Part shown: piece after piece, positions 9,001 through 15,000 of the stretch
How the letters are laid out: the number at the start of each line of letters is the position of its first letter
Position numbering within the stretch: position 1 is the stretch's first letter
From: a bacterium
Lineage (GTDB): Bacteria; Patescibacteriota; Minisyncoccia; Phycocordibacterales; JAGLPS01
Direction: 5' to 3'
DNA: 64,000 bases
NCBI GenBank assembly: GCA_030690305.1
Contig: JAUYHB010000013.1
Coordinates: 5,221 to 69,220 of the forward strand
Position numbers: made by a program

Positions 9001-12000
9001 CTACAGCTTTGAACTTTCCCTGTTCCGTTTGGAAAATCAGGTCATCGTGGTCTTTTCGCGCGACTGGCCTGTTCGTAGGAATTGGAAGAACAGGCAGACC
9101 GTATACTTTATAAAATTCTTCCGCAGACGTGAGCGCGGTACCCGTCATTCCAGAAAGTTTTTTATACATTCGGAAGTAATTTTGGAACGTGATGGAGGCA
9201 AATGTGCGCGATTCTTTTTGAATGGCAACTCCTTCTTTCGCTTCAATCGCCTGATGAAGGCCCTCGGACCACCTTCTTCCCGGCTGAAGTCTCCCCGTAA
9301 ATTCGTCCACTATGATGACCTCCCCGTCGCGGACGACATATTCTTTGTCATTGGTAAAAAGGGCTTTTGCTTTAACCGAAAGTTCAAGATGGTGCACGTA
9401 TTTCATTCCCCGTTCCGTATAAATATTCTCAACACCAAGAATTCTTTCCGCATTTGAAATTCCCTCGTCGGTAAGAGTAATGGCTTTCAATTTCTCGTCA
9501 ACCGTATAATCCGGTCCTTCTTTGAGCGATTGTGCAAGCCGGGAAAATGTTTGGTATAGGTTTTCTGACTGAGATGTGGGCGCTGAAATAATGAGAGGCG
9601 TACGGGCTTCATCAATAAGAATCGAGTCGATTTCATCGACAATGGCATAGTGGTACTCGCGCTGTCTTAGGCGTGCCGTATCGACTTCCAGATTATCGCG
9701 CAAATAGTCGAAGCCGAATTCATTGTTCGTGCCGTAAGTGACATCCGCCGCGTACGCTTCTTTTCTGCTGCATTCGCGGAGAAAATCGTAAACAACTTTA
9801 AATGAACCCACTTCATCGCGGGTCTCGTCTTTTTCCTTATGTGCTGGGTCGTACAGGTATGATTTTTCATGATTGATGACTCCCACCGAAAGACCGAGGG
9901 CGGCATATATTTGACCCATCCACACTGCGTCGCGTCTCGACAAATAATCGTTGACCGTTACCACATGCGCACCTTTTCCCTCAAGGGCATTGAGATAGGT
10001 CGGAAGTGTCGCGACAAGTGTTTTTCCTTCTCCCGTTTTCATTTCGGCAATACTTCCTTTATGAAGGACGATGCCCCCGAGGAGCTGAACGTCGTAATGG
10101 CGTTCGCCGAGCGTTCGTTTCGCCGCTTCCCGCGTTACTGCAAACGCCTCGGGAAGGAGGGAGTCAAGTGTTTCCCCTTCCGTGATACGGCTCTTAAATT
10201 CATCAGTTTTTGCTTTAAGTTGGTCGTTTGTAAGGGGAGAGATTGAACTTTCAAGCTCGTTAATTTTTGAAACAAAAGGGCGCAAAGCATCAAGCTCGCG
10301 CGCTTCTCTCGAACCGAACAACCCCTGTAAGGAAAACATGATAAAAGAAACTTTAACACAAAATAGGCTTCGTACCAAACAACCAAACGCAAAACCCATC
10401 TGTCTTAGGCAGATGGGTTTTGACAAGCGTTACGGAGAAGAGAAAACTAACGTCGTCTCTTTTTTGCTGCTTTTCTCTTTACAGTCTTTCGCTTCTTAGC
10501 AGCCTTTTTCTTTTTTTTGGCCATTTGTATTGCGCGACCCGTCGCTAATTACGACTGATCGTGATTACTGCTAAACGCTTAATAGTGCGTGATCTCGAAA
10601 TTTTATTTCAGTTGAAGAAACAAATTTCTTACGACCTTATATTAATTATCGTATATGCGAATGGACAACACAATGTTTTTTCTTGTACAAAGTGTTGATA
10701 ACTGCAATTACTTAAAATCACCGATAAAACATACTTCCGGTTCAAGGATAACACCTGTTTTTTTTCTGACAGAGTCAATGACAAAATCACTCATTTCCTT
10801 TATTGCCAAAGATTTTGCTCCACCAAGGTTGACTATTGCAAGAGGTTGTCTTTCATAAAGACCCACAGAGTCTTTCTTGAATCCTTTTAGTCCGCACACA
10901 TTGTCCAGTATCCATGCTGTTGGAATTTTTTTCTCGCCGGAAACAAGGGAAAACATGGGCATTGCCGGAAAACTCTTTTGCAATATGTCGGCCTCTTTTC
11001 TTGAAAGAATAATATTTTTAAAGAAAGAACCTGCTGTTCCGTATTGATCAAGCGGAGGAAGTTTTTTTGAACGAATATCAAGAATGATGCGGCGGATGTC
11101 CGAAACGTCTGGATTTTCTATAGTGTGTTCCGCAAGATATGTCCGTATGTCTCGATAGGAGGTTAAGAGCGGAGCCGTTTTTGTTAAGAGAAAAGTGACT
11201 GACAGTACGACGAGGCCGCTGCCTTTCTTTTTTTTAAATATGCTACTGCGATATGAAAGCTCACATTCTTCCGGTGAGAGGGAAAAAATCTTGGCCGATT
11301 CAATGTCAAAAACTTCAACACTAAACAGTGTGTCTTTTATTTCGGTTCCATACGCTCCAATGTTTTGGACGGGTGCCGCACCGACAGTCCCCGGAATGCC
11401 CGATAAATTTTCAATGCCGTGAAGACCTCTAGAAACACTTTCTGAAACCAGAGAATCAAAATGAACTCCCGCGGCGGCGGTTACCAGCGTGGTATCGGCA
11501 TCCTTCGTTTTGAAATGAATCCCGGAAGTTGTTATTTTTATAACAAGACCGGGGAAACCGCTGTCGGAAATCAAAATATTTGAACCCTCCCCCAAAATTA
11601 AAAAAGGAATTGATTCTTTTTTTGAAAAAGAGAGAGCCGTACGGATGTCATCAAGGGAGAGTGCCTCGGCAAAATAACGCGCCGTTCCCCCGCTTTTGAA
11701 TGTATTAAACGATGCGAGAGAAATATCTTCTTTGATAAAAAGCATGGACTGGGGACGTCACGTCCGTTCATGACGGGCGGGGCTAGCTCCAAAAATGTCT
11801 ATTGTGAGTGCGACCGCCCGTCGTGAACGGGCACGACAGAGTATATAGAGAATAGTAACAAAAGCCTCCTTACAAACGCAAACCCCCTCCGAAGAGGGGG
11901 CTTACGCAGACATTCTTATTTGGTAGCTAGCGCTTACACGCGCTCACAGACCATACAGTAGCATACTTTGCAAAAAAACACAAGCTAGGGATTTCTACCT

Positions 12001-15000
12001 GCCCTAATTTCATTTATGTAGTACTCACCCTGATTTTTGAATTCCGGATTCAGTTGTATCACCTCTTCAATATCTGCAATAGCCAGAGATCGGTTTCCAA
12101 TCTGCAAATAAATACCGGCCCGTGAAAGACGATTACCCGTATCCTGAGGGTCAAGTTCGATTCTTTTTCCCAATATTTCAAGGGCACGGACGTACTCTCC
12201 TTTTGCGGCGTATGCTTGTAAAATTCGGTTGTCAAAATACAGCACTTCTTGCGGAAGAGAGACAAGGAGCTCTTGTTCAAGTTTTTTATCACCGGCATAA
12301 ATGGCACCCATTGCGTAAATGATTTTTGCTGTCAGGAAAGAGGGCTCGAGTTCGTAAGCGGTTTTAAAAACTTCAAGAGATTTGTCATACTCCTTTTTCC
12401 CAAGGTAGGAAGTGCCAAGTTCAAAATATGCGGTTTGTTTTTTAGGCGAAGATTGCGTTGCCTGCGTTGCATACTGTTTCCCTTTATCATAACTGCCGAA
12501 TGCATTAAACGAGACCGCGGCAAAAAGTTGATAACGAGTATCGTTTGGAGTAAGGGCAAGGTGTTTTTCGAGTTCTTGGGCGGACAAATTTGCAAATTGG
12601 ACCTTAATATCGTTTGGAATTGACGGGTTCCGTACAAGAGTTGTCGCAGTTAACGAAAGCTGCTCACGGATTTCCGGACTGCCAAATGAGTTATACGCGA
12701 GGGCCTTTTTGAAATATTCAAGGTTGAGACCAAAGTTGCTGTCTTTTTGAGGTGAGATCGCTTGTATCAGCGCCTTATTTGTTTGAATCGGAATAATGTT
12801 TGCGGTGTACAGTATGAATAACAAAAGAATTGCAGTAACAGCGGAAGTTGTTTGTATACCCCGTTCTTTTACATCAAAAGAAAAGAGGTCCCAATCCTTG
12901 GCCGCAAGGGAGTGGATAAAAGCAAGAACGGAGAAAAACATGAGATAACTTGTCAAATTATCAAAAACGAAAAGATTGTGGAAAAAATAGGCGGCAAACA
13001 AACCGGTGAGAATGCTTTTGTCACTTGAGGACAGGGTTTGTACCCTCCAAAGATACTTTATACCCAACCAAAAAAGAGAAAGGTAAAGGACCGATCCGAA
13101 AATTCCTCCGGCAACCAACCAATCAAGGGCGGCGTTGTGGGTACGGTCAAACCAAGTCTCTTGGTTATACATTCGCGGGTCATAATGTTTGTTGAATACG
13201 TAGTTAAAGCTTTCTTGTCCCCACCCAAAAATCGGACGCTCAAGGAAACCTTTTATCGCCATCGGCCAGACATAATAACGAGCTTGATTGGGTGTATTGC
13301 TTAAAGAAATTTCCGCAAACCGAACAAGGGTAGGATTATTTTTAACAAAAGCCGAATCTTTTATCGTTATAAAACCGAGAACAAGGAAGATAAGCCCTCC
13401 GATAATTCCTAGGGAAATATTTCGGAGAATTTTGTTTTCTTTTTCCTTAAACACAACCAAGCAAGCGGAAAGAAAAATTCCTCCGATAAGACCAAGAATA
13501 GCGCCTCTCGTTTGAGTCTCGTAGAGAACAAAAAGAAGCAAGGGGATTAAAAGCCCATACGCCAAACGAAGTGAGTTACCGCGGGTTCTTATGAGAAGAA
13601 AGAGTGCAATAAAAATATGAAAGACAAGATAAATTGCCAAATACGTCGCATTGCCAAACGTTGCGTCCACGCGCACACCTCCCTGGTTGATGGGAAATTT
13701 CCCCATAAGTTGCAATACCCCGTATATCGCAATCCCCAAACTCGCGACCAAAGACGTATTAAAAAATCTTATCCATAGCTTTTGGGTAGACAACACACTA
13801 CTCATGACCGCAAAAAATACAACCAGGTGAAGAATAGTTATGAGACCTTCCATTCGCTCATAGTTACTCCAGAAACTTTTTGATGGATTTTCTGAAAAAA
13901 TTGCCGATATTGAAAGAGAAACAAGAAAAGCGAGAAGCGCACCGAAAATCCACGAAAATTTCGGACGATATTGTTTATTAAGCAGAAAAAGGACAATCCA
14001 TAGCGCGGCGATTATTTCTACAATAATCCTAAACGTAAAACCCTTACCAGTGATAAACGGAAAGAACATTGAACGGTCAACCAAAAACGGAATAAAGAGA
14101 ATGCCAAACAGACCGATAAAAATAAGGGCTTTTAGTACTTTTTCGATTTGTGTATTCGTAGGCATATATGTAAAAGATACGTACAGAATAGTACAAAAGC
14201 AACTGAAAAACAAACACTCGAGACGGTATACTTGTTTCAACATAGAAAAAACGATAGTGTAACAGTAATATACGAACCAGCAATGGTAGGAAAAACAAAA
14301 ATGACCCCTAAAAGTAAAACTTCTTCCCCTAAAAAAGCTCTTATTACGGGTATTACCGGACAAGATGGCTCGTATCTCGCCGAACTGCTACTGGAAAAGG
14401 GATATGAGGTCCATGGTCTCATACGGCGCGCGAGCGCATTTAACACAAGCCGCATTGATCATTTATACAGGGACCCTCATATTAATGGTATAAAAATGTA
14501 CTTACACTACGGGGACCTTTCTGATGGAAGCAATTTGAATAGAGTTCTTGAAAAGATACATCCTGATGAAATCTATCATCTTGGAGCTCAAAGTCATGTG
14601 AGGGTCAGTTTTGATATACCCGAGTATACAGGGGATGTAACCGGTCTTGGAACACTTCGCATTCTTGATGCGATACGGGATACCGGTATACAGACACGGT
14701 TTTACCAAGCGTCATCCAGTGAGATGTTTGGCAACGCTTCAGAAATACCGATTAAAGAAACGACACCCTTTTATCCCCGCTCACCCTACGGCTGCGCCAA
14801 AGTATACGCATACTGGATAACGAGAAATTATCGGGAAAGCTACAATCTGTTCGCCACAAACGGCATTTTATTCAATCACGAATCCCCACGTCGCGGGGAA
14901 ACTTTTGTGACAAGGAAAATTACGCGTGGGCTCGCGCGCATTAAGCTTGGGATAGACAATAAACTTTTCTTGGGCAATCTTGACGCGAAGCGGGATTGGG

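Follow-up and report, generated by a model that had tools for sequence, protein, structure and literature searches.

A conserved WaaL-fold ligase candidate with a fused TPR domain at the edge of a variable glycan gene region in Paceibacteria

Gene and domain organisation

The DNA analysed here, referred to as the window, is a stretch of 64,000 bp from a bacterium of the GTDB lineage Patescibacteriota; Minisyncoccia (GenBank assembly GCA_030690305.1, contig JAUYHB010000013.1, positions 5,221 to 69,220). The gene under study encodes a 726-amino-acid (aa) membrane protein in which a Wzy_C domain is followed by tetratricopeptide repeats (TPR). An earlier note on this DNA, made from the sequence alone, had described it as a candidate O-oligosaccharyltransferase at the boundary of a glycan island. 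The gene, hereafter the ligase gene, and the features of its product are listed below, with the basis of each in brackets (TM, transmembrane; AF2, AlphaFold2 model).

11985..14165, minus strand: gene for a ligase with Wzy_C domain, WaaL-like fold and C-terminal TPR (open reading frame, 726-aa translation, Pfam, AF2)
12792..14165, minus strand: membrane domain, aa 1-458, with 13 predicted TM helices, N-terminus inside and a WaaL-like GT-C_B fold (AF2, hydropathy, Lys/Arg distribution)
13080..13541, minus strand: Pfam Wzy_C match, aa 209-362 (Pfam)
13491..13523, minus strand: loop YETQTRGAILG, including R220 (translation)
13134..13361, minus strand: large outer loop between TM9 and TM10, aa 269-344, with R282, R296, GWGQE and WFDRTHN (alignments, translation)
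13137-13139, minus strand: codon of H343, the proposed acceptor-activating His (translation of FDRTHN, hhalign)
12792..12866, minus strand: predicted thirteenth TM helix, extra relative to the 12-TM WaaL (AF2 helix 434-470, hydropathy peak 437-455, translation)
12003..12734, minus strand: TPR solenoid, aa 478-721, predicted to be extracytoplasmic (Pfam TPR models, AF2)
14166..14300, no strand: intergenic region of 135 bp between the divergent ligase gene and gmd (gene calls in contig L001, sequence)

The mechanical open reading frame (ORF) of the ligase gene extends to a TTG at 14363, and the 726-aa product starts at the ATG at 14165, which is the start chosen by the gene callers both in an identical Logan contig (L001) and in a protein of an NCBI metagenome-assembled genome (MAG; P0001) that is 100% identical to the 726-aa ligase and carries the record name 'O-antigen ligase family protein'. 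The Wzy_C model (PF04932) matched with an E value of 2e-20 and 73.5 bits against a cut-off of 31.7 bits, in agreement with the domain and signature loop named in the earlier note, and a Wzy_C match was present in 28 of 28 scanned family members. The fused TPR repeats were likewise recovered, TPR_1, TPR_2 and TPR_8 exceeding their gathering cut-offs within aa 530-715 (39-40 bits versus 26-28 bits), with TPR_14 and TPR_19 also matching in the C-terminal solenoid. An NCBIfam scan of the ligase returned no ligase model; its sole match, to the IctB bicarbonate transporter (TIGR00947), was sub-threshold and was rejected (49.8 bits against a 366.4-bit cut-off).

Gene calls and sequence place gmd (14301-15380, plus strand) divergent from the ligase gene across 135 bp, as had been described, or across 117 bp if the alternative in-frame gmd ATG at 14283 is used. 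The further proposal that this gap is a shared control region was not borne out: promoter-like and terminator-like sites in 10300-14400 were no more numerous than in shuffled sequence, and the one promoter-like match (plus strand, 14203-14232) was weak and no better than shuffle expectation, so that the region is treated here as an intergenic gap.

Fold, topology and catalytic residues of the membrane domain

The AF2 model of the full-length ligase, built on 37 homologues (mean pLDDT 88.2, pTM 0.83), comprises 13 TM helices, a 76-residue loop (aa 269-344) between TM9 and TM10, and a solenoid at aa 478-721; a separate model of aa 1-470 reached a pTM of 0.90. Foldseek analysis of the membrane-domain model gave the WaaL structure 7TPG (7tpg_B) as the only significant PDB fold match (E 2.3e-7, TM-scores 0.57/0.64, 456 columns), the next being the peptidoglycan polymerase FtsW (E 4.5e-3, TM-scores 0.37-0.46). 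Short loops rich in Lys and Arg (aa 63-71, 194-196, 241-244 and 422-433) alternate with loops that hold all of the invariant motifs, and an N-in orientation, as in WaaL, is predicted to place the former inside the cell and every invariant motif in the outer loops.

Alignment of 37 family sequences showed 76 invariant positions. The invariant motifs are FFPFITGKGF (aa 33-43), SFWSNYERMEG (aa 97-107), INQGGVRVDATFGN (aa 159-172), TRG (219-221), R282, R296, GWGQE (314-318), WFDRTHN (338-344) and FVFDN (399-403), and T217, T219, R220 and G221 are invariant in both alignments made (37 and 28 sequences). In a weak hhalign alignment of the family profile with E. coli K-12 WaaL (E 0.0078, probability 5%, 308 columns), R220, R296 and H343, all invariant in the family alignments, fall in register with R215, R288 and H338 of WaaL, and the TQTR (WaaL 212-215) and HN motifs are identical. 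These WaaL residues are essential, comprising two phosphate-binding arginines and an acceptor-activating histidine (PMC3643930, PMC10920833).

The TPR domain

The C-terminal region was modelled as a continuous helical-hairpin solenoid (aa 478-721) with pLDDT above 90. Its invariant residues include TPxDARY (540-546) and SPKKQ (573-577). Its PDB matches, by sequence and by fold, were consensus TPR proteins and the TPR domain of OGT, and the full-length ligase as a PDB sequence query returned only TPR proteins. The extra thirteenth TM helix is predicted to carry the TPR domain to the outside of the cell. The earlier suggestion that the repeats serve acceptor recognition is in keeping with this 13-TM, N-in topology, in which the predicted outward-facing domain is placed where an acceptor could be engaged.

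Conservation of the family in Paceibacteria

At E<=1e-30, a search with the membrane domain alone matched 2689 clusters (represented at 50% identity). Of the 150 best, nearly all have a length of 700-800 aa, which indicates that the TPR fusion is kept in nearly all relatives. The best 120 database matches have lengths of 708-759 aa, align over 95-100% of the query and show the same two-domain architecture, their named sources being Parcubacteria, Zambryskibacteria, Yonathbacteria, Minisyncoccia and Patescibacteria. Encoding loci were found in at least 593 species genomes (one genome per species), the named lineages being Paceibacteria-type MAGs, and the family proteins, of approximately 725 aa, are 42-59% identical over their full length. 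The ligase gene is a conserved backbone gene of the whole class Paceibacteria of the candidate phyla radiation (CPR), where it is near-universal.

Synteny of the ligase gene

Neighbouring genes were compared across 80 species-level loci, of which 51 had at least 3.5 kb of downstream DNA and 67 could be used for the upstream neighbour. The features of the window outside the ligase gene that enter this comparison are as follows (GT, glycosyltransferase; LTD, Lamin-tail domain).

7874..10339, minus strand: secA, probable start at the Met of MFSLQGLFG (translation, tblastn; Pfam for the orthologues in loci L002 and L004)
10708..11745, minus strand: murB, the downstream neighbour in about half of the loci (Pfam FAD_binding_4 and MurB_C)
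14301..53936, no strand: variable glycan-synthesis and export region of approximately 40 kb (Pfam; absent from the colinear loci L044 and L078)
53992..59403, minus strand (the ligase strand): backbone GT4 glycosyltransferase genes and one epimerase gene (Pfam; tblastn colinearity with L044, L078 and L073)
59400..60575, minus strand: LTD-PKD surface protein, a candidate acceptor only (Pfam LTD and PKD, sequence, hydropathy)

By tblastn, secA lies downstream of the ligase gene on the same strand in 47 of the 51 loci, directly in 21, via murB in 25 and after a 2-kb gap in one. The upstream neighbour is always a glycan gene and differs between loci: among the 67, at least 13 have a Wzx flippase in this position (L002 and L004 being fully annotated examples with a divergent Wzx), 12 a sugar-nucleotide dehydratase or epimerase and approximately nine an ABC exporter component, with methyltransferases and phosphoglycosyl transferases among the others. 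The genes of the first 10 kb of the island were found in just 0-14 of the 80 loci. The island contains gmd, fcl, a fused ABC exporter (16611-18431), O- and C-methyltransferases, enzymes of the GT2, GT4 and GT11 families, three aminotransferases, AsnB, a carbamoyltransferase, rmlA, rmlB, rmlD and a PMT_2 GT-C enzyme; no recognisable Wzx was found in the window's locus by Pfam scans.

The distant relatives L044 and L078, with ligases 42-43% identical, are colinear with the window's backbone on both sides and carry all genes on one strand, in the order DUF4015, VirD4-like ATPase, four to five GT4 genes, a methyltransferase or UDP-glucose-dehydrogenase-like gene, ligase, murB, secA, AI-2E transporter, P-type ATPase and MYG1. 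ORF maps and Pfam show GT4 genes directly upstream of the ligase gene in L044, L078 and L073. In the window this GT4 set occupies 53992-59403, so that the stretch of approximately 40 kb that separates the ligase gene from the last GT4 gene (14301-53936) is an insertion. The boundary position given in the earlier note holds, the ligase gene lying at the edge of the glycan gene region as it does in relatives, but the gene is not a component of the island: its linkage to murB and secA across the 80 loci and the colinearity of L044 and L078 rule out that it is island cargo and mark it as a backbone gene.

The earlier note had also drawn attention to a Ser/Thr-rich surface protein beyond the island. 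Such a protein is indeed encoded at 59400-60575, with a signal peptide, a Lamin-tail domain, a Ser/Thr/Pro linker, a PKD domain, a Ser/Thr/Pro stalk and a C-terminal TM anchor. Its gene, 45 kb from the ligase gene, is an additional insertion, placed between the first GT4 gene and the VirD4-like gene. The Wzy_C domain, its loop, the TPR repeats, the divergent gmd, the boundary position and the features of this surface protein are not chance patterns.

Other genes of the locus

Two terminator-like hairpins were seen on the coding strand, one at 10390-10422 (minus strand; 13-bp stem, just upstream of the probable secA start and within the mechanical ORF extension) and one at 11883-11898 (minus strand; 87 nt past the ligase stop codon). 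They point to separate transcripts for ligase, murB and secA in this locus, although such sites are no more numerous than in shuffled sequence. A short UDP-glucose/GDP-mannose-dehydrogenase-like protein (6970-7941, minus strand), with matches to the N-terminal and central domains and none to the C-terminal domain, adjoins secA; its counterpart in L078 (L078:7987-8886) lies among the GT4 genes upstream of the ligase gene. Further downstream, a few genes past secA, positions 6308-6943 (minus strand) encode a membrane protein with a DedA/VTT domain (PF09335, E 3.8e-16), and a DsbB gene (5324-5929) adjoins this gene, as in L002 and L004. DedA-family proteins are implicated in the recycling of undecaprenyl phosphate, which a WaaL-type reaction would require. 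Many of the loci L009-L085 are titled 'uncultured Candidatus Saccharibacteria'; their SecA proteins are 61-72% identical to that of the window, the same range as in loci with Paceibacterota or Parcubacteria titles, and the Saccharibacteria title looks like a generic label and not a real assignment.

In the closest species-level relative, L007, positions L007:1-9413 are colinear with 14301-25879 of the window and 60-88% identical (gmd, fcl, ABC exporter, methyltransferase, GT2, aminotransferase, GT11 and AsnB), while its backbone is less similar (ligase 59%, murB 45%, AI-2E transporter 51%); an island more similar than its flanks suggests horizontal exchange or unusually strong constraint. Within the island, a gene at 16321-16617 (plus strand), lying between fcl and the ABC exporter gene, encodes a small DNA-binding protein of the HTH_17 (excisionase/MerR-like) type that may be a local regulator or a mobile-element remnant. 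Three consecutive ORFs at 33736-37227 are without a Pfam match (302 aa with approximately five TM helices, 455 aa with at least four and 405 aa with one), and the membrane proteins among them could be an unrecognised flippase, polymerase or acyltransferase. The PMT_2 (ArnT/PMT-like) protein at 46996-48366 (minus strand) is a second membrane GT-C enzyme, and L002 has a PMT_2 gene together with a UbiA prenyltransferase and a small multidrug-resistance-like protein (L002:3473-5140). These PMT_2 enzymes could add sugars at the outer face from polyprenyl-monophosphate donors or carry out protein glycosylation of their own. A gene pair for a VirD4/TraG-like coupling ATPase and a putative glycosyl hydrolase (DUF4015) is conserved at the far edge of the glycan region (60580-63532, minus strand; L044:1900-4893 and L078:1389-4517), with identities of 53-67% compared with 42-43% for the ligases of the same genomes.

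Enzyme class and proposed reaction

The protein is probably an integral-membrane glycosyltransferase of the WaaL/PglL class, with a GT-C_B fold and a Wzy_C domain resembling CAZy family GT121, and a ligase or oligosaccharyltransferase rather than a polymerase. Its assignment to the WaaL/PglL type in the earlier note agrees with the Wzy_C domain, the WaaL fold and the Arg/Arg/His set. A ligase or oligosaccharyltransferase is favoured over a polymerase because a highly conserved enzyme stands next to donor loci that vary, because the acceptor-activating residue is His and not Asp or Glu, because the window's locus has an ABC exporter and no recognisable Wzx, and because both export routes occur with this enzyme among relatives. 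A varied donor combined with a constant acceptor fits ligases, whereas polymerases diverge strongly, tracking repeat-unit structure, and in related polymerases of the inverting type the position of the acceptor-activating residue is occupied by Asp or Glu (PMC10920833). The pattern found here departs from that of BP-Pol polymerases, with the identity of 42-59% maintained across at least 593 species genomes next to unrelated neighbouring loci, and with an invariant His343.

In the proposed reaction, a polyprenyl-diphosphate-linked glycan, made by the adjacent lineage-variable region and exported by the ABC exporter of this locus or, in relatives, by a Wzx flippase, would be bound at the outer face of the cytoplasmic membrane. 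R220 and R296 would hold the diphosphate and H343 would activate an acceptor hydroxyl, the glycan being moved en bloc and the polyprenyl diphosphate released for recycling. The external TPR solenoid may recruit the acceptor. The enzyme thus envisaged probably attaches variable surface sugars to a cell-surface protein or lipid, and the likeliest acceptors would be Ser/Thr (or Tyr) residues of Sec-exported surface proteins, which would make it a general O-oligosaccharyltransferase analogous to WsfB of Paenibacillus alvei.

Comparison with characterised enzymes

WaaL (GT121; Cupriavidus metallidurans 7TPG and E. coli K-12) shares with the family the Wzy_C domain, the GT-C_B fold, the large outer loop between TM9 and TM10 and the aligned Arg/Arg/His, and is likewise a conserved enzyme paired with variable donor loci. 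Unlike WaaL, the family has a thirteenth TM helix, a predicted extracytoplasmic TPR domain of 250 aa and additional invariant outer-loop motifs (FFPFITGKGF, SFWSNYERMEG, INQGGVRVD and FVFDN), shows no significant sequence-level match to it, and occurs in a host lineage reported to lack the WaaL acceptor, lipid A-core (PMC5220378).

A precedent for the architecture is found in S-layer glycosylation. WsfB of P. alvei is an S-layer O-oligosaccharyltransferase with a Wzy_C domain and a C-terminal TPR motif, and in Geobacillus stearothermophilus, where glycan assembly is ABC-transporter-dependent, the two parts are divided between the Wzy_C enzyme WsaB and the TPR protein WsaA, which have neighbouring genes (PMC2943079). 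A monoderm host, the Wzy_C and TPR combination and a surface-glycan locus are common to these systems and the present one; in contrast to them, no S-layer gene was found beside the Paceibacteria gene, a core gene of the whole class with linkage to secA and murB. Public databases already call such proteins 'O-antigen ligase/TPR repeat protein', and a literature search for this ligase family in CPR or Parcubacteria found nothing specific; given these labels and the WsfB precedent for the architecture, the proteins are an uncharacterised family of a known kind and not a new kind. What is added here is that the family is near-universal in Paceibacteria, has a fixed place between a hypervariable glycan locus and secA (with or without murB), and has kept the ligase catalytic set together with a TPR domain predicted to face outward.

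The protein ligases PglL and PilO (TfpO) have the Wzy_C domain and the same three essential residues (PMC3643930), and a relaxed donor specificity such as theirs would explain how one conserved enzyme serves variable loci. Unlike them, the family has no adjacent pilin gene, and in Pfam it shows no TPR-type domain architecture typical of PglL. TacL, the lipoteichoic acid (LTA) ligase of Streptococcus pneumoniae, compared here by description, is of the O-antigen-ligase type, acts in a monoderm and transfers a polyprenyl-diphosphate-linked polymer to its final acceptor (PMC5727136); that acceptor differs in being a glycolipid. The eukaryotic protein O-mannosyltransferases TMTC1-4 have the same design of a GT-C enzyme with extracytoplasmic TPR. 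The pilin glycosyltransferase TfpW of P. aeruginosa has a periplasmic C-terminal TPR domain (10.1101/2020.04.19.049825). TfpW and TMTC1-4 resemble the family as polytopic glycosyltransferases with C-terminal non-cytoplasmic TPR, and they act on protein acceptors; they differ in belonging to another, ArnT/PMT-like GT-C subclass and in using monosaccharide donors on polyprenyl monophosphate, not oligosaccharides on undecaprenyl diphosphate.

The acceptor

The earlier note had assumed that the organism may lack lipopolysaccharide (LPS), and this premise accords with what is reported for its lineage. Parcubacteria are reported to be without lipid A/LPS genes, a parcubacterium examined in detail being without lpxC and kdsA (PMC5220378), CPR bacteria are placed in a monoderm clade (10.1101/2021.05.31.446380), and Pfam scans found no lpx or kds genes among the genes of the 64-kb window. 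As the Paceibacteria-type CPR lineage is reported to be LPS-less and monoderm, a classical WaaL role is unlikely.

A protein acceptor, with the enzyme acting as an O-oligosaccharyltransferase, is the most likely single option, at odds that we put a little short of even. For the en-bloc transfer onto protein Ser/Thr proposed earlier, the Wzy_C-plus-TPR precedent of WsfB (and of WsaB with WsaA), the protein acceptors of TfpW and TMTC1-4 and the lineage reported to be LPS-less speak in favour, and the nearly constant linkage to secA would suit an enzyme that acts on exported proteins. Several observations weigh against it. The sequence does not decide between a protein and a glycolipid acceptor, and the PglL_A marker (PF15864) had no match at E<=1 in the window's protein or in any of 28 family members; membership of the PglL family is rejected on this marker. 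No acceptor gene such as a pilin or S-layer gene lies next to the ligase gene, whose neighbours are murB, secA and glycan genes, and the adjacency of secA may be mere inherited gene order. The order of four to five GT4 genes followed by the ligase gene resembles the position of waaL among core glycosyltransferases and, with the murB link, fits a lipid or cell-wall acceptor equally well. Other TPR roles are on record, namely glycan binding and scaffolding of an export machinery (10.1101/2020.04.19.049825; ref. 99 of PMC2943079). As to the enzyme itself, phmmer and a 28-sequence membrane-domain profile run against all PDB sequences found no ligase, 7TPG included, and with sequence similarity to WaaL thus below significance the residue equivalences rest on the fold and the motif register. 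The LTD-PKD protein has no orthologue in the 80 loci and is absent from between the VirD4-like and GT4 genes of L044 and L078; together with its distance from the ligase gene, this leaves it unsupported as a dedicated acceptor. The earlier note is upheld on the existence of this surface protein, which is a plausible substrate of the ligase, though not its dedicated partner.

The strongest alternative to a protein acceptor, and a serious one although clearly less probable, is that the enzyme transfers glycan from polyprenyl diphosphate to a membrane glycolipid, the GT4 enzymes building the anchor or 'core', to give a lipoglycan similar to LTA or LPS in a monoderm. The closest solved fold is that of WaaL, whose catalytic triad is conserved, and the four to five same-strand GT4 genes before the ligase gene in L044, L078, L073 and the window's backbone recall E. 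coli waaL, which likewise lies among core glycosyltransferases. A conserved enzyme with variable donors implies one invariant acceptor, for which a lipid would fit, and TacL is an enzyme of the O-antigen-ligase type that acts on a glycosyl-diacylglycerol acceptor in a monoderm (PMC5727136, PMC11324232). However, WaaL is described as a 12-TM protein without TPR (PMC10920833), whereas the family nearly always keeps the TPR fusion; CPR bacteria are reported to be without fatty-acid synthesis (PMC5220378), which makes a dedicated conserved lipid anchor less obvious; and the position immediately upstream in the 67 loci is mostly occupied by flippase, exporter or sugar-nucleotide enzyme genes and not by a GT4 gene. 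We know of no TPR domain in TacL.

A role in anchoring wall polysaccharide, in which the glycan would be joined to peptidoglycan itself or to a secondary polymer bound to it and the TPR domain would dock onto the machinery of cell-wall synthesis, appears improbable. It would account for the murB gene immediately downstream in 25 of 51 loci and for a Mur ligase gene nearby in L044, it accords with the speculation that Gram-positive GT121 members ligate capsule to peptidoglycan (PMC10920833), and the SEDS peptidoglycan polymerases FtsW are the second-best fold neighbours. The FtsW similarity is nevertheless weak, at the E value and TM-scores given above, and of the 47 loci with linked secA, 21 lack murB. 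Moreover, the anchoring of wall polymers in monoderms is done by LCP-family enzymes, and we know of no Wzy_C enzyme with peptidoglycan as a demonstrated acceptor.

Least probable of all is a Wzy-type polymerase that joins lipid-linked repeat units, with the TPR domain as a chain-length or export scaffold, for although the Pfam Wzy_C family also takes in polymerases, a Wzx flippase is the divergent upstream neighbour in some loci and no other Wzy candidate was recognised in the window, such a role sits poorly with an enzyme that keeps its identity while neighbouring loci share almost no genes (polymerases being extremely divergent; PMC10920833), with the ligase-like invariant His, with a locus whose fused ABC exporter and several methyltransferases without a recognisable Wzx are typical of polymerase-independent assembly, and with the minimal loci L044 and L078, which have no flippase in the 10 kb examined.

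Implications for Paceibacteria

We hypothesise that this ligase O-glycosylates proteins. More broadly, and with distinctly less assurance than for a protein acceptor as such, the whole class Paceibacteria may share a single, universal Sec-linked step of surface glycosylation, in which a conserved WaaL-fold ligase would use its TPR domain to capture exported proteins or a conserved anchor and would receive its glycan from a horizontally exchanged adjacent locus. If this is true, these LPS-less episymbionts would have a hypervariable, 'O-antigen-like' coat by which host and phage specificity is set. Should the donor specificity of the enzyme be relaxed, it could be a new oligosaccharyltransferase for bioconjugates. 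The conserved flanks (the GT4 set, the ligase gene and secA) allow surface-glycan loci to be located and compared across thousands of MAGs, and a near-universal, easily recognised enzyme between a hypervariable glycan locus and secA provides a concrete, testable handle on how CPR/Patescibacteria build their surface.

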